A stretch of 64,000 bases of DNA from Pseudomonadota bacterium (lineage in GTDB: Bacteria > Pseudomonadota > Gammaproteobacteria > Burkholderiales > Rhodocyclaceae), in NCBI GenBank assembly GCA_022705135.1, contig JAKJFA010000001.1:13300-77299 (forward strand), read 5' to 3'. The translations under genes were made by a program, and so were the position numbers. Shown in pieces: positions 14,275 through 64,000 of this stretch. The first letter of the stretch is position 1. Each line of letters begins with the position of its first letter. The notes below the pieces were generated by a model. The model made no database searches. It had not been told where the DNA came from and saw only the letters and a list, made by a program, of their open reading frames with translations.

Positions 14275-14498
14275 GGGGTTTCCTTACAGGCTGCAAAACG
14301 GGAACAAGGGAAGCGTGGCCGGAAGGGACGCGGGCGAATTTTAACAGAAGCTCAGTACCCAAGAAGCTGAAAGAAAATTGTAGCGAGCGCAGCCAGGTTG
14401 GCCGCGCCCGGAACACAGCGACGAGACAGTACACGAAGTACGGCGAGGAGCGAGTACCGCGCAAGAGCAAGCTGGCAAGCGCAGTAAATTTTCGACAG

Positions 14499-14918
14499 CT
14501 TAAACAGGCTGCTGAAATACTCCACGGGGTTGCGGCGCAGGCTTTCCGGGATGGCTCGCGCAACGTGGCGCTTCGGTACGTGCGCAGTGAAGCGAGCCGT
14601 AGCAGCGCCATCCGCGTAAGCGCGAGCCCGTGTTCGCCTCCGCTGCCCGATCCCCCTGCGGGGGCCCCTCGGGTCGCGCTCCGGCGCTGCATGCACGAAA
14701 GGAAGCGAAGCCAATGGTCGATCCCCTTGGCGAGCTTCCTGACACAGCAGACCGCCCGGAAAGACGCGCCCCTCCGGGTTTGCGCGAAAAATGCCCATCT
14801 GCAGTGTTGCGCTCCTCGGCATCGTAGTCCCGGCTACGACCTTCGTCGCGCGTCGCGCATCTGTGCATTTTTCGTGTCAAACGCATTCTCCCGGCGAGTT
14901 TTTCAACAGCCTGTTAAC
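14499..14918. mobile_element. MITE-like non-autonomous element, copy A (420 bp, carries a ~136-bp internal extra block at 14555-14690)
   Basis: Imperfect terminal inverted repeats: CTTAAACAGGCTGCTGAAATACTCC... and ...GAGTTTTTCAACAGCCTGTTAAC. The interior is nearly identical to 59802-60085. The only ORFs are frame-independent junk shared by both copies. Confidence 0.7.
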
Positions 14919-59012: not shown

Positions 59013-59753
59013 TCACGCCATCCACTCCGTCAATACCGGAATCTGCGCATAGTGCGTCAGGTCGATTTGCAAGGGCGTGATCGAAACCATGTCGCGCTCA
59101 AGGGCGTGGAAATCGGTTCCGCGGCCGGAATCCTGCGCCGCGCCAGCCGCGCCCACCCAATACACCGTCTCGTTGCGTGGCGTCACCATCTTCACCACCG
59201 ATTCCGCTTTATGGCGCTTGCCGAGCCGGGTCACCTCCATGCCCGCCAGGCGGTCATGCGGAATATCCGGAACATTGACATTGAGCAGCACCGGCTGGCG
59301 AATGGGCTGCCGGAGGAAGCGCTCAACCAGGCTGCGCGCCACCCGGCCCGCTGTCTCGTAATGCAGCGCCTCGAAACTGCCGAGCGAAACCGCCAGCGAC
59401 GGAATACCGAGCAGAAAGCCTTCCATGGCGGCGGCCACCGTTCCGGAATAAATGGTGTCATCCCCCATGTTGGGCCCCTGATTGATGCCGGAGACAATCA
59501 TGTCGGGCAGGTCGTCGAAGAGGCCGGTCACGGCCAGATGCACGCAATCCGTTGGCGTGCCATTGACGAAGAAAAAGTCATTGGCCGCCTTGCGCACTGT
59601 CAGCGGCCGATCCAGAGTCAGGGAGTTGCTGGCGCCGCTCTGGTTGCGCTCGGGCGCCACCACGACGATTTCCGCCAGTTCCGCCAGCGCGTCCGCCAGA
59701 ACCTGCAGGCCGGGGGCCAGATAACCATCGTCGTTGCTTACCAGAATACGCAT
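59013..59753 (-). CDS. surE: 5'/3'-nucleotidase SurE
   Basis: Start trimmed to ATG 59753 ([11 protein letters not shown]...). [24 protein letters not shown]. Confidence 0.95.
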
Positions 59754-59801
59754 AAACTGCCTGCCTTGGGCCAAAATCAGCGCCGTATTTTAGCAGACTG
59801 G

Positions 59802-60085
59802 CTTAACAGGCTGTTGAAGAACTCCACGGGGTTGCGGCGCAGGCTTTCCGGGATGGGATGCACGAAAGGATGCGAAGCTAATGGTCGATCCCCTTGGCGA
59901 GCTTCCTGACAAAGCAGACCGCACGGAAAGACGCGCCCCTCCGGGTTTGCGCGAAAAATGCCCATCTGCATTGTTGCGCTCCTCGGCATCGTAGTCCCGG
60001 CTACGACCTTCGTCGCGCGTCGCGCATCTGAGCATTTTTCGTGTCAAACGCATTCTCCCGGCGAGTTTTTCAATAGCCTGTTAAC
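59802..60085. mobile_element. MITE-like non-autonomous element, copy B (284 bp)
   Basis: TIRs CTTAACAGGCTGTTGAAGAACTCC... and ...GAGTTTTTCAATAGCCTGTTAAC. The interior matches copy A at 14499-14918 minus the 136-bp block. It abuts an extra half-TIR, giving the 16-bp palindrome AGCCTGTTAACAGGCT at 60075-60090. Confidence 0.7.
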
Positions 60086-60211
60086 AGGCTGTTAAAGAAG
60101 CGCATTCCGGCCAAAGCCGGAATCCAGAAGAGAACACACTGGACCCCGGCTTGGCCATCTCTTGAAACGCCACTTTGCAATTGCCAAGGTGACGAAACCA
60201 TCCGCGTTTCG

Positions 60212-60796
60212 CTAAACGCTCAATCCATCGAGCGGGCTGATGACGCCGCGTCCGCCCCGGTTGAGCACATGCGTATAGATCATTGTGGTGGATACATCGG
60301 AATGGCCGAGCAATTCCTGCACGGTTCGGATGTCGTATCCCCCTTCCAGCAGATGCGTGGCGAAAGAATGGCGCAAGGTATGCGGCGTGGCCGGCTTGAC
60401 CAGACCGGCGTCGCGCACGGCCTGGCGAATCGCCCGCTGCACCGCCTGATCTTGCAGATGATGGCGCCGTACAGCGCCGCTGCGCGGGTCCTAGGACAGA
60501 TGTATGGAAGGAAAGACGTATTGCCAAGCCCATTCCCGTTCGGCGTTAGGATACTTGCGCGCCAGCGCGTAAGGCAGATACACCGCGCCGTTCCCGGCGG
60601 CCAGATCGGAATCATGCAGCGCCTTGACTTTGAGCAGATGATCTTTCAATGGTGTGCGCAAAGCAGCCGGCAGCATCGTGACGCGATCCTTGAAGCCCTT
60701 GCCATCGCGCACCAGAATCTGGTGCCCCGCGAAATCGACATCTTTGACCCGCAGCCGCAAGGCTTCCATGATGCGCAAGCCGGAACCATAGAGCAG
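60212..60796 (-). pseudogene. intI: Integron integrase intI, 5'-truncated (starts near the first catalytic Arg) and interrupted by an in-frame TAG at 60491-60493
   Basis: Translation reads [22 protein letters not shown]...[11 protein letters not shown]...[50 protein letters not shown]...[54 protein letters not shown]. It is collinear with IntI1 as I remember it, including the IntI-specific ALxRKYPxA...W...F insertion. ORFs 60491-60928 and 60212-60442 are in the same frame (48 nt apart). Confidence 0.85.
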
Positions 60797-60928
60797 ATTG
60801 GCGATCAGTTCCAGTAACTGGGTGCGGGCGACTTTCGGCTTCACCAACACCGCCTTGCCACGCTCATCTACCCCGTGAATTGCAAATACGTTCTTGGCGA
60901 GATCGATTCCAACAGTGATAATGCTCAT
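60797..60928 (-). mobile_element. Remnant of an IS110-family (DEDD) transposase gene: first ~44 codons only, fused in frame to the intI remnant
   Basis: [44 protein letters not shown] matches the highly conserved IS110-family N-terminus (VGIDLAKxxFxxHGVDxxGK). The rest of the transposase is absent. The junction position is +/- a few codons. Confidence 0.7.
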
Positions 60929-61041
60929 GGACTTCCCCTTTCGATGGTTTCAAATGGACGACTTCGACATCACCATTTTGGCACTCAACTGCCGTTCGCG
61001 GCTTCCGCCGCAGCCTCGGGACGGGGAAGTCCCTTTCATTC

Positions 61042-61048
61042 GTTATGC
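61042..61048 (+). other. Integron core site GTTATGC marking the 5' boundary of cassette 1 (crossover between G61042 and T61043)
   Basis: TTATGC is the exact complement of GCATAA in the R'' box of the same cassette's attC (62668-62674), as expected for a cassette excised and integrated at G/TT. Confidence 0.7.
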
Positions 61049-61071
61049 CCCATTCCGGGAGTCTCACTGCC

Positions 61072-62673
61072 ATGACTGAAAGGCGCACGTTAACCCTTCC
61101 GCGCATCAACGGTGCAACCGAATCCATAGAGACAACACAAAGCCTGTTATTCATCGGTGCGAATGGTTCCGGTAAGACACGCCTCGGCACATGGATTGAA
61201 ATCACTTCGCCTCAGCGCGAATTAGTTCATCGAATTTCCGCCCAAAAGTCGTTGTCGATGCCAGATTCGACGACACCAGTTTCAGTCGAGATTGCTGAGA
61301 AGAGCCTCTTATTTGGAAACCCGGACTGGAACTATCAACACAAACTCCATAAGTGGGGCAAGAAGCCAGCCACGATGCTTCTTAGCGATTACGAGAAGCT
61401 GATGGTCTTTTTGTTTTCAGATGAAACTGAAGAGAATGCGAAATTCAAGATTGCAGTTAAGGCCTGCACAACACGCATTGAGCCGCCAGTAACAAAAATA
61501 GACCTGGTCAAAGAGATATGGGAGAAGATACTTCCGCACCGCGAACTTGTAATCGGTGGCTTACGAGTTCAAACAAGAGTCAAGGGGCAATCCGAGAAGA
61601 TTTACAAATCATCGGAAATGAGCGACGGCGAGCGGGTTATTTTCTATTTAATTGGGCAATGTCTGGCAGCTCCAAAGAATGGAATCATCGTTATCGATGA
61701 ACCGGAGTTGCATCTTCACAAGTCAGTACAGGCACCTCTTTGGGCGGAAATTGAGAGGCTTAGAAGTGATTGCCTCTTTGTATATCTGACACACGATGTA
61801 GATTTCGCTGCCTCACAGGAAGGCGCAGCACGAATTTGGCTGAAATCTTTTGATGGCACATCGTGGGATTGGGAACCCATTAGTGCCGACGAAAATCTTC
61901 CGGACGATCTGTTGCTCGAAGTCCTGGGGAGCAGAAAACCAGTTGTATTCGTTGAAGGAGATAACGGAAGCTACGATGTCTCTTTGTATCGCGAGATGCT
62001 TCCTGGTTTTCTCGTTGTGGCAAGAGGCAGTTGCTCGCAAGTAATCGTCTCGGTCAAAGCACTGAAGGCCAATGCGCAGCTACATCACCTTAGTGTGTAT
62101 GGCATTGTGGATCGAGATCGAAGGGTACCTGAAGAAATTGCTGCCTTAGAAGCGGACTCGATCTTCGTCCTCACAGTTGCAGAAGTCGAAAATCTTTTCT
62201 GTACGGAGGAGGTAATAAAAATTGCCAGCAAAAGGCTTGCGCGCGATCCGACTGCTGACTTCCATAGAGTTTCTGATGAGATATTCAAGCGGCTTCAACA
62301 AGAGCTAGACATACAGGTTTCTCTGCGCGTCGCAAGTGAAATCAAGTTCCAGCTGAGCAAGTTTGACCAAAACATCAAAGGGGAGAGCGCGCTATCCGGC
62401 GCGCTAAATGCGCTTGCGCAAAGCATCGATGTGAAACAACTTTATACGACATGCATGAACACATTCTCGGAGATCATCGCCAATCGTGACTACGAAAAGT
62501 TACTGAGCACGTACAACCGCAAGTCATTGGCTAATCAGGCTAGCGGAGCGCTCGGATTGAAGAGCGGCGAACTGCCTGAATTGATTCTCAGACTAGCGAG
62601 AGGCGACTCCCGAGACGAGATTCGAGCAGCGTTGAAGAAGTACTTTGGAGGCTTTGGTGCTCATGTGGCATAA
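61072..62673 (+). CDS. Cassette 1 protein: ABC-type (AAA_21/AAA_15-like) ATPase fused to a C-terminal DUF4435/Toprim-like domain
   Basis: ATG 61072 (GGGAG 10 nt upstream); an alternative ATG 61045 lies inside the core site. Walker A FIGANGSGKT, Q-loop SAQKS, signature-like MSDGER, Walker B IIVIDEPELHLH, H-loop YLTHD. Then VVFVEGDNGSYDVSLY, GIVDRDRR and AEVENLF, typical of DUF4435. AT-richer than the flanks. Confidence 0.8.
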   Translation: MTERRTLTLPRINGATESIETTQSLLFIGANGSGKTRLGTWIEITSPQRELVHRISAQKSLSMPDSTTPVSVEIAEKSLLFGNPDWNYQHKLHKWGKKPATMLLSDYEKLMVFLFSDETEENAKFKIAVKACTTRIEPPVTKIDLVKEIWEKILPHRELVIGGLRVQTRVKGQSEKIYKSSEMSDGERVIFYLIGQCLAAPKNGIIVIDEPELHLHKSVQAPLWAEIERLRSDCLFVYLTHDVDFAASQEGAARIWLKSFDGTSWDWEPISADENLPDDLLLEVLGSRKPVVFVEGDNGSYDVSLYREMLPGFLVVARGSCSQVIVSVKALKANAQLHHLSVYGIVDRDRRVPEEIAALEADSIFVLTVAEVENLFCTEEVIKIASKRLARDPTADFHRVSDEIFKRLQQELDIQVSLRVASEIKFQLSKFDQNIKGESALSGALNALAQSIDVKQLYTTCMNTFSEIIANRDYEKLLSTYNRKSLANQASGALGLKSGELPELILRLARGDSRDEIRAALKKYFGGFGAHVA

Positions 62674-62736
62674 CCCTGCGGTCCACCGGACGCTGCGCGA
62701 TAAAGCCGCGCAGCGCCGGTGACCTCCACGTTGGCC
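62668..62736 (+). other. attC recombination site of cassette 1 (69 bp)
   Basis: R'' GCATAAC ... imperfect palindrome CACCGGACGCTGCGCG-ataaagc-CGCGCAGCGCCGGTG ... R' GTTGGCC. Overlaps the stop codon of the cassette ORF. Confidence 0.8.
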
Positions 62737-62764
62737 GTCATGAGGAAGCTCGTAAGGAGTCATC

Positions 62765-63847
62765 TTGGATAAACGCTATCAAGTATTCGTAAGTTCCTCC
62801 TATGAAGACCTTCGGGAGGAAAGGCAAGAAGTTATGCATGCTCTTCTCGAACTGGATTGCATCCCTTCTGGCATGGAGTTGTTTCCGGCTGCTGATGAAG
62901 ATCAGTGGACGTTGATCAAAAAGGTCATTTCCGAGTGCGACTACTACCTGATTATTTCCGGCGGACGGTACGGATCGATTGGGCCATCTGGACTGAGTTA
63001 CACGGAAATGGAATACAGGCACGCCCTAGATATTGGGAAGCCGATAATCGGGTTCCTTCATAAGGATCCAATGCAACTTCCGGCCGGGCGTTGCGAGCAA
63101 ACCGAAGATGGAAAGAAGAAACTTCTTGCACTGAGAGAGTTGGTACAAAAGAAAATGTGCAAGTTCTGGACAACGCCTGCCGAATTAGGATCTGTTGCTA
63201 GTCGCAGCCTAGTTCGATTAATCAAGACAACGCCGGCGGTGGGATGGATAAGAACCAATCAAGCGATGGACTCTGTAGCTGCCGGCGAGATTCTGAAGTT
63301 GAAAAAGACTATCGATGACCTGCAAACGAAGCTCCAAGAAGCGCGGCTTTCCGGGCCCAGTGGGAGCGAAAGTTTGTCTCAGGACGAAGACGAATTTGCC
63401 ATTCATTTCAAGTTTGAGACGAGAGATGCATCGAGGGAAGAATGGACTTGGGACTACGAGGTCGATTTAACATGGAATGAAATCTTTTACGACCTCGGCC
63501 CCGTGATGCTTAACGAAGCTTCTGATATTGATGTGCGTACTGCACTCAATCAAACCGTTCGAGAGCGTTCAAGAAAGTTGCGTGGTGCAGACAAGAATCT
63601 GAAAGGACATACGGCGTTGTCAAGAACGTTCACGGTTTCGGAACATGATTTTCAAACTGTCAAAATTCAGCTGATTGCCTTGGGCTTGATTGCAAAAAGC
63701 CAAAAGGCACGTAGCGTCAAAGATTCGCGGACCTTTTGGGCACTCACTCCTTATGGCGATCAGGTGCTGACCACACTGAGAGCAATTAGACGCGGTCCCG
63801 GACTTGAAGCGCCCGGCCCACAAGAGGACGCTGCGGAGGGTGAATGA
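62765..63847 (+). CDS. Cassette 2 protein: N-terminal DUF4062 domain, coiled coil, C-terminal possible winged-helix region
   Basis: TTG 62765 with perfect AAGGAG 5 nt upstream. YQVFVSSSYEDLREERQEVMHALLELDCIPSGMELFPA...CDYYLIISGGRYGS is the DUF4062 signature. ILKLKKTIDDLQTKLQEARL is the coiled coil. The C-terminal ...FWALTPYGDQVL is wHTH-like. Confidence 0.8.
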   Translation: MDKRYQVFVSSSYEDLREERQEVMHALLELDCIPSGMELFPAADEDQWTLIKKVISECDYYLIISGGRYGSIGPSGLSYTEMEYRHALDIGKPIIGFLHKDPMQLPAGRCEQTEDGKKKLLALRELVQKKMCKFWTTPAELGSVASRSLVRLIKTTPAVGWIRTNQAMDSVAAGEILKLKKTIDDLQTKLQEARLSGPSGSESLSQDEDEFAIHFKFETRDASREEWTWDYEVDLTWNEIFYDLGPVMLNEASDIDVRTALNQTVRERSRKLRGADKNLKGHTALSRTFTVSEHDFQTVKIQLIALGLIAKSQKARSVKDSRTFWALTPYGDQVLTTLRAIRRGPGLEAPGPQEDAAEGE

Positions 63848-63848
63848 C

Positions 63849-63915
63849 GGCCAACCACTCATTCCACCGGACCTGCGCGAAAAGCCGCGCAGGCCGGTGA
63901 ATTCAAACGTTGGCG
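63849..63915 (+). other. attC recombination site of cassette 2 (67 bp); cassette 3 begins at 63910 and runs off the window
   Basis: R'' GGCCAAC ... CACCGGACCTGCGCG-aaaagc-CGCGCAGGCCGGTG ... R' GTTGGCG. The R'' is the exact complement of the GTTGGCC at the cassette 1/2 junction. Confidence 0.85.
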
Positions 63916-64000
63916 TCTTCACGCAGCCATGGAATATTTCGCGGCAGTAGTCCCTAAATCAGAATCTGAACTTGTGTCTGTGTTCCCCTTTAGCCCTTTC

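Follow-up and report, generated by a model that had tools for sequence, protein, structure and literature searches.

An integron integrase remnant fused in frame to the start of an IS1111-type transposase beside two gene cassettes in a Rhodocyclaceae genome

Insertion sequences (ISs) of the IS1111-attC group, comprising ISPst6, ISKpn4 and ISPa21 and also ISPa25, insert at one end of attC, the recombination site of integron cassettes, and lie antisense to cassette transcription (PMC3001079, PMC11187229). ISPst6, ISKpn4 and ISPa21 form a monophyletic clade, the members of which are at least 74% identical to each other, and for elements of the IS1111 family a guide RNA mechanism (seekRNA) has been described (PMC11187229). 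Chromosomal integrons often have an integrase gene intI that stop codons and large deletions have inactivated, as in Xanthomonas (PMC12444791), and integron cassettes that encode phage defence are also on record (bioRxiv 10.1101/2024.07.02.601719, PMC12614218). Here we describe a locus within 64,000 nucleotides of a Rhodocyclaceae genome (assembly GCA_022705135.1, contig JAKJFA010000001.1, positions 13,300 to 77,299; this whole stretch is called the window), where the first 44 codons of an IS1111-type transposase (gene tnp, protein Tnp) are joined in frame to the 3' part of intI, next to two cassettes (Table 1). We consider it quite probable that a small sedentary chromosomal integron of a betaproteobacterium resembling Betaproteobacteria bacterium ADurb.Bin341 was wrecked at this locus by insertion of an IS, a deletion at a microhomology and a nonsense change.

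The IS stump is like the IS1111-attC group in its DEDD transposase start, its left subterminal inverted repeat, the attC end that it occupies and its orientation, and a guide RNA (seekRNA) from the region downstream of tnp presumably recognised its target. It is unlike that group in consisting of a left end and 44 codons only, and in belonging to a different branch of IS1111. Degenerate chromosomal integrons and clusters of attC sites lacking a working integrase (CALINs) provide the second comparison. As in these, intI shows a large deletion and a stop codon while attC cassettes persist; in contrast to them (e.g. in Xanthomonas), the deletion ends within an IS that targets the array, which yields a chimeric in-frame open reading frame (ORF), and the array is very short. 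The locus represents an ordinary kind of integron decay with an unusually clean history, and it does not challenge current understanding.

Table 1. Features of the locus, in positions of the window
Feature	Position	Strand	Basis or remark
Chimeric pseudogene	60212-60928	-	IS1111-type tnp codons 1-44 joined in frame to the 3' ~60% of intI
intI remnant	60212-60796	-	IntI residues ~134-325 of a 325-residue protein; TIGR02249, tblastn
Nonsense codon TAG, in frame, sole internal stop	60491-60493	-	Translation; also in the gene calls of the second contig
Junction patch CTGATCGCCAATCTG (L-I-A-N-L), 15 nucleotides	60794-60808	-	Overlap of transposase and IntI tblastn alignments
IS1111-group (IS110-family, DEDD) transposase, codons 1-44	60797-60928	-	NF033542, tblastn
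Complete non-coding IS left end, 113 nucleotides, begins GAATGAAAGGGACTTCCCC	60929-61041	-	Homology and flank comparison
Left subterminal inverted repeat GGGACTTCCCC	61023-61033		Within the IS left end
R' core site GTTATGC (GTTRRRY type), start of cassette 1	61042-61048	+	Read from the sequence
Cassette 1: fused PARIS AriAB-like ATPase/TOPRIM gene and attC1	61043-62730	+	PADLOC, Pfam, attC fold
AriAB ORF, 533 residues	61072-62673	+	Start favoured by the gene call of the second contig and the PADLOC alignment
attC1	62668-62736		R'' GCATAAC at 62668-62674
Cassette 2: DUF4062 protein gene and attC2	62731-63909	+	Pfam, attC fold
DUF4062 ORF, 360 residues	62765-63847	+	Pfam DUF4062, E=5e-28
attC2	63849-63915		R'' GGCCAAC at 63849-63855
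Miniature inverted-repeat transposable element (MITE)-like element, 285 bp, 28-nucleotide terminal inverted repeats TTAACAGGCTGTTGAAGAACTCCACGGG	59801-60085		Between the intI stop and surE

The two parts of the chimeric pseudogene

Translated on the minus strand, the chimera gives a 239-codon frame that ends in TAG at 60212-60214, and its single in-frame internal TAG, already remarked upon in an earlier account of this DNA made from the letters alone (the sequence-only reading), is borne out by translation; gene calls give two ORFs, of 145 and 76 amino acids. Residues 39-236 match the 'integron integrase' model TIGR02249 over profile positions 118-315 of 315, with 330.8 bits at a cutoff of 265. 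The XerC and XerD models reach 124.8 and 120.2 bits on the same part, both far under their cutoffs, and align in two separate stretches that flank the IntI-specific extra segment (KYP...W.W..VFP), which is present and can be aligned to that of intact IntI proteins. The frame is not shifted anywhere, and the catalytic motifs R, HxxR and Y can still be made out. The internal TAG follows directly upon the IntI-specific KYP...WAWQYVFPS stretch and, in the alignment with intact IntI, occupies the E/V/A position of the conserved LS(E)DPRSG motif of the relatives. The nearest intact relatives come from metagenome bins of Rhodocyclales and Zoogloeaceae; these IntI proteins have 325 residues and are 84-85% identical. 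With the closest of them (P0127, 325 residues), tblastn places residues 130-323 at 60808-60227 with 84% identity. What remains is neither complete nor uninterrupted, as residues 1 to ~130 are absent and the TAG precedes HxxR and Y. Judged by these profiles and alignments, the integrase part is a true IntI that is now a pseudogene. No second intI was found in the window by tblastn.

Residues 1-44 of the chimera match the NCBIfam model NF033542 (IS110-family transposase) at its positions 1-44 (E=5e-6); the match to Pfam PF01548 is weak (E=0.055) because the fragment is just 44 residues long. In tblastn, residues 1-45 of an IS transposase align with 60928-60794. Many IS110-family N-termini are 72-90% identical to the 44 residues, among them ISDar1 (72%), the full-length relatives described below (77%), and IS1492, ISPsy16 and Cupriavidus copies (~79-84%). 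The non-coding left-end DNA is likewise 70-77% identical in nucleotides to IS1492, ISPsy16 and to Cupriavidus and Polaromonas plasmid copies. The sequence-only reading had itself named two outcomes that would speak against it, namely an N-terminus outside the IS110 family and a downstream part of XerC/D type. The profiles place the N-terminus in the IS110 family, as IS1111-type, and the downstream part with IntI. Its figure of ~140 missing IntI codons, on the other hand, has to be lowered to ~130 according to tblastn and the alignment to intact 325-residue IntI.

The first cassette begins right where the left end of the IS stops, which agrees with the earlier claim that the intI promoter region and probably attI are missing. 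Two bona fide attC-bounded cassettes are present, but no attI region remains, and the locus is therefore not a functional integron platform. There is now no integrase, no attI and no functional IS, neither transposase nor guide RNA being left. The promoter Pc, normally located in the upstream/promoter region of intI, has probably been lost. For annotation, the locus is to be entered as an intI pseudogene and the left-end remnant of an IS1111-family element, and the XerC/XerD names in the source are wrong.

Full-length relatives of the IS measure ~1.49-1.53 kb and encode a 341-residue Tnp, followed by a non-coding region of ~350-390 nucleotides and the right repeat GGGGAAGCCCTTGTA; this right end and the non-coding region are deleted in the window. 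Searches found no full-length copy of the IS elsewhere in the window, and an exact 33-mer of the IS had no match in metagenome contigs. Looser patterns, applied to genome and metagenome contigs, returned relatives only, at most ~84% identical, and did not recover the parental tnp. Rfam, at gathering thresholds for the whole window and at E<=10 for 59500-64000, gave no family of bridge-RNA or seekRNA kind near the locus; this is expected because the guide region belonged to the deleted right end.

Two side observations concern the stump. The chimeric ORF retains the ribosome-binding site and the start codon of the IS. A promoter scan marks two plus-strand sigma-70-like sites in the direction of the AriAB gene, at 60744-60772 and 60894-60922, both too weak to build on.

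Insertion site and lineage of the IS

On the tnp strand the window reads GCATAAC|GAATGAAAGGG, the IS ending at 61041 and the cassette core starting at 61042. The IS left end thus joins the core of the first cassette directly, with tnp antisense to the cassettes. The position of this terminus is set by the end of cassette homology at 61041 and by 113 distinct flanks, which were obtained from 119 loci in a scan of GTDB genomes for the left-end pattern. A recount with a slightly different pattern, to which loci L135-L152 were added (including those from a metagenome scan), comprised 108 distinct flanks. In 65 of these 108 the flank ends in AAC, followed by GAATGAAAGGG. An exact RYYYAAC, the reverse complement of the integron core GTTRRRY, is present in 43 of the 65, and at least three of the four RYYY positions match in 63. 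A CAT lies within 40 nucleotides in 42 of the 65 AAC flanks; this is an opposite-strand ORF start codon, as expected at the beginning of a cassette.

Occupied and empty attC sites can be compared directly in one metagenome-assembled array, where empty sites read GCCTAAC-GTTAAATTGAGGGG... and occupied ones GCCTAAC-[IS]-GTTAAATTGAGGGG..., giving an insertion point of GCCTAAC^GTTAAATT... Hence, on the bottom strand, the element separates AAC from GT; it lies one base away from the crossover point of the integron and runs antisense to the cassettes. The DNA that follows the right end of the relatives is the remainder of attC, in some cases of the same attC type as in the window. Altogether, related full-length elements occupy RYYYAAC^GT, antisense to cassettes, at dozens of betaproteobacterial integron sites. 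Up to five copies were seen per contig (L007-L125 and L137-L152; e.g. L027 3777-5300, L044 and L051).

The non-coding region downstream of tnp differs between lineages with different targets. In the attC-targeting lineage it contains CCCGA-CTAACGA(or TCAACGAATGA)-GG, and in a sister lineage from Paraburkholderia, flanked by YTAG|AGAATGA, the same position reads CCCGG-CTAGAGAATGA-GG. The left end of this sister lineage is nearly identical, yet it is located at YTAG^A. Such co-variation of a putative guide segment with the flank fits a seekRNA guide (PMC11187229) and speaks for a site in the window that was selected by the element rather than hit by accident. The sequence-only reading had proposed that an IS110/IS1111-type element, from a family with members that target integron recombination sites, inserted beside the first cassette in the orientation of intI. 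The site and the orientation stand, given the left end at GTTATGC and the 65 relatives, but the cassette that is now the first need not have been the first originally, and the site entered may have been attI or attC, everything to the right of the IS being deleted, possibly together with cassettes.

Transposase sequences and the identity matrix used for comparison with named elements are those in the supplement of Siddiquee et al. 2024 (PMC11187229). Full-length elements with the left end found in the window (L025, L027, L070) are 77-79% identical in Tnp to ISDar1, 37-39% to ISPa25 and ~33% to ISKpn4; the 44 residues of the window align with ISKpn4 across 12 residues only. By this comparison the IS is to be assigned to the ISDar1 branch, outside the 'IS1111-attC' clade of ISPst6, ISKpn4 and ISPa21. 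It shares with the ISDar1/IS1492/ISPsy16 branch the similarity of the N-terminal residues and of the left-end DNA, as well as the 341-residue Tnp of its relatives. In contrast to the lineage in the window, IS1492, ISPsy16 and the Paraburkholderia sister lineage are located away from integron sites, with ..TTAG|C or YTAG|A as their flanks. No mention of ISDar1 was found in the text of the literature searched. IS110-family genes on enterobacterial plasmids, 65-67% identical to the relatives, were considered as cases of ISKpn4 in class 1 integrons and rejected, as they are not in integrons.

A wider hypothesis may be put forward tentatively, as possible rather than probable. An ISDar1-like lineage, for which no listing as attC-targeting was found, may have gained targeting of the R' core (RYYYAAC^GT) via its guide RNA, independently of the named IS1111-attC clade, and may have spread widely through the sedentary integrons of Rhodocyclales, Nitrosomonadales and related groups, with tnp codons 41-45 as a possible recurrent breakpoint. 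If this were true, breaks at these codons would leave left-end stumps or MITE-like derivatives and could remove intI and attI, which would make this IS lineage a regular agent of integron death. The present locus is a further indication that the same few bases within the integron recombination site are the target of several IS1111 lineages. The cassette array of a Zoogloeaceae relative (L006 2908-4026) contains a different IS110-family transposase of 372 residues (MGKKSSTLYVGLDVHKD...), also antisense to the cassettes.

The junction, its proposed history and the alternatives

At the junction, the alignment with the transposase reaches 60794 and that with IntI begins at 60808, the 15 nucleotides CTGATCGCCAATCTG being claimed by both. 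At this place the sequence CTGATCGCCAGC(C/T)TGCTCTA is found in three of the four closest intI genes. Codons 41-46 of many tnp relatives run CTGATCGC(G/C/A)CA(G/A)CTGCCGCC, and a few relatives have Asn (AAC) at codon 44. Both parents therefore probably carried a repeat with 8-10 identical nucleotides and CTGC, to judge from these relatives. The repeat would be direct because tnp and intI lie on the same strand, and with the same frame in both genes an in-frame fusion is no coincidence. The earlier proposal of a deletion from tnp codon ~45 to intI codon ~140 is supported as to the deletion itself and its tnp end, with the junction falling in a shared L-I-A-x-L / CTGATCGCC..CTGC patch; the intI end, however, has to be moved to residue ~130-134.

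The history that we propose would consist of three steps. First, as suggested by the anatomy of the locus and by the many relatives, an ISDar1-like IS1111 element, directed by an RNA guide from the non-coding region at its right end, would have entered a recombination site (attC or attI) immediately before the AriAB cassette. It would have inserted within the R' core, with AAC to one side and GT to the other on the bottom strand, and its antisense orientation relative to the cassettes would have placed it on the intI strand. Second, tnp codons 41-45 and intI codons 130-134, which both encode L-I-A-x-L in almost identical nucleotides (CTGATCGCC..CTGC), would have acted as a short direct repeat; everything between the two copies would have been lost through recombination or slippage of replication there. 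The loss would include ~1.25 kb of the IS (the rest of tnp and the guide-RNA region), the remainder of attC or attI, any intervening cassettes, the promoter/upstream region of intI and its first ~130 codons (~390 nucleotides). This would amount to ~2 kb at the least, and to more if cassettes lay between. Under this model parental tnp codons 41-46 would be expected to read CTGATCGCCAATCTGCC..., with ~14 of 16 nucleotides shared. Third, a nonsense change, most simply GAG to TAG, would have affected the IntI part; the change itself is visible in the sequence, and it may have come before or after the other steps. Read in this way, the locus may serve as a clean worked example of how, once an attC-targeting IS has inserted, a single microhomology deletion can strip an integron of integrase, attI and promoter together. 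Beyond the sequence-only reading, the present analysis adds the location of the IS terminus exactly on the cassette boundary, a microhomology that would account for the in-frame fusion, and the placement in the ISDar1 branch.

Several points weigh against this history. The true parents were not found, no full-length copy of the IS exceeding ~85% identity and the closest intI genes being just ~85% identical, and the length of the microhomology is deduced from relatives. At the junction stands the codon AAT, where the intI relatives have AGC and most tnp relatives CAG. Entry may have been at attI or at attC, and an indefinite number of cassettes may have been lost. Furthermore, the two contigs that carry the junction may share the same or related read sets, so that their independence is not proven.

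Among the alternatives, a site-specific deletion, with IntI acting on a secondary site or the IS transposase and its guide RNA on a pseudo-site, survives best, and we consider it unlikely. It would make tnp codons 41-45 a recurrent enzymatic hot spot, and several unrelated truncated copies indeed break at the same codons with different partners (e.g. L135 and L136); in addition, the corresponding tnp stretch in relatives, CAGTTGCC, contains GTT. The junction in the window, however, contains neither a GTT/AAC core nor an IS terminus, and the sequence on its intI side is ordinary coding sequence, colinear with the relatives. Besides, the apparent hot spot may reflect ascertainment bias of the 44-residue query, and some of the cases are plain frameshifts.

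An assembly chimera, in which a contig ending in a repeated IS was joined to a contig starting inside intI so that no such molecule exists, appears highly improbable. IS copies often break assemblies, the source is a metagenome bin, and many N-terminal IS fragments of 43-77 residues in public data resemble contig-end artefacts. Yet the shared patch of ~15 nucleotides is below the k-mers that we assume to be usual for short-read assemblers (about 21 nucleotides or more), the junction lies in the same frame within a motif common to both genes, and the IS left end falls exactly at an independently verified cassette boundary. Moreover, the identical junction is found on a second contig, MWBA01000044.1 (GCA_002068855.1, Betaproteobacteria bacterium ADurb.Bin341), which is 99.99% identical to the window across 10.3 kb, with 1 mismatch, before it diverges, and which ends elsewhere.

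Barely credible, finally, is a functional fusion gene under selection, whose product would be a peptide with a regulatory or dominant-negative role or a novel domain combination: ribosome-binding site and start codon of the IS are kept and the IntI part is free of frameshifts with its motifs conserved, but function of the chimeric ORF is very unlikely because only 44 of ~341 Tnp residues, all from the DEDD domain, are left, the N-terminal DNA-binding domain of IntI is gone and the TAG ends the product at 145 residues, ahead of HxxR and Y, while this product is the single member of its 90%-identity cluster (recorded on 2 contigs) and no other fusion occurs among the best 120 of 8000 IntI homologues.

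Independent truncated copies of related elements were encountered as well (L135 2888-3290, L136 2890-3160, P0001, P0003, P0004, P0010, P0016, P0024 and P0046). They leave the tnp consensus at codons ~41-45, with differing partners, which could be a hot spot or ascertainment bias. In L135 an internal deletion joins tnp to the non-coding region of its own right end and forms a MITE-like derivative of 400 bp. In L136 tnp runs into unrelated DNA, with the reverse transcriptase gene of a group II intron ~380 nucleotides downstream.

Cassettes and genomic surroundings

The boundaries of both cassettes can be read from their core sites. Cassette 1 opens with GTTATGC, the exact reverse complement of its R'' GCATAAC (TTATGC/GCATAA), and TTGGCC at the start of cassette 2 is complementary to R'' GGCCAAC of that cassette. 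When folded, the bottom strands of attC1 (z=-4.9) and attC2 (z=-5.8) give imperfect hairpins of the expected kind. A copy of cassette 1 with 92.5% nucleotide identity is found on an unrelated Logan contig (L132), where homology is limited to 61041-62732, i.e. from the IS/core junction to the GTT of attC1; this supports the cassette boundary and the IS terminus independently. On the second contig (L001), clpB follows directly after attC2 in convergent orientation, so that the array consists of two cassettes only.

The product of cassette 1 matches PADLOC model PDLC02982 (E=1.5e-201, residues 11-535) and contains Pfam AAA_21 and DUF4435; it is predicted to be a fused AriAB of the PARIS anti-phage defence system. 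The mechanically called ORF of 542 residues starts at an ATG within the core GTTATGC, 61045-61071 being the extra part, and the real start is probably at 61072. About 10 other metagenome contigs carry the AriAB cassette with at least 90% protein identity. The DUF4062 protein has no PADLOC match. Both remaining cassettes look like defence genes. They are foreign in composition, with 47-52% GC compared with 59-65% in the flanking core genes surE, pcm and nlpD. In the annotation, the two genes downstream would be integron cassettes, one of them a PARIS-type defence gene.

As for mobility, the sequence-only reading held that the integron is immobilised and its cassettes are frozen in place. Given the remaining parts, both the capture of new cassettes at attI and excision in cis are lost, which agrees with the first half of this statement. 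Frozen, however, is overstated: attC1 and attC2 are intact and fold well, and a trans-acting IntI could therefore still excise cassette 2. Of the upstream partner site of the AriAB cassette, just the 7-bp core is left.

The locus resembles sedentary chromosomal integrons of Rhodocyclales, both in the 84-85% identity of the IntI part and in the attC type CACCGG..CTGCGCG..CGCGCAG..CCGGTG, which also occurs in arrays of the relatives. In these Rhodocyclales relatives, however, intI stands beside secretin-like and DinG-like helicase genes, in contrast to the remnant in the window, which lies between clpB and surE. No orthologous intact integron was found at the clpB-surE locus, and the closest intact intI genes have another conserved neighbourhood. 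The intact relatives (L006, L128, L129, L131) carry intI near toxin-antitoxin pairs, secretin-like and DinG-like helicase genes, the gene of a ~430-residue protein, and mobB-moeA. In the genome of the window (L001, a contig reaching past the window end), the helicase gene and the gene of a 426-residue protein are located on the cassette side, beyond clpB, and surE follows intI. These differing neighbours indicate that the neighbourhood has been rearranged.

The TTAACAGGCTGTT palindromes at 59803-60099 were considered as further attC sites and rejected, since they are the terminal inverted repeats of the MITE-like element. A second copy of this element, at 14498-14918, is 93-97% identical and contains an internal insert of 136 bp, and a solo copy of the inverted repeat is present at 60081-60099.

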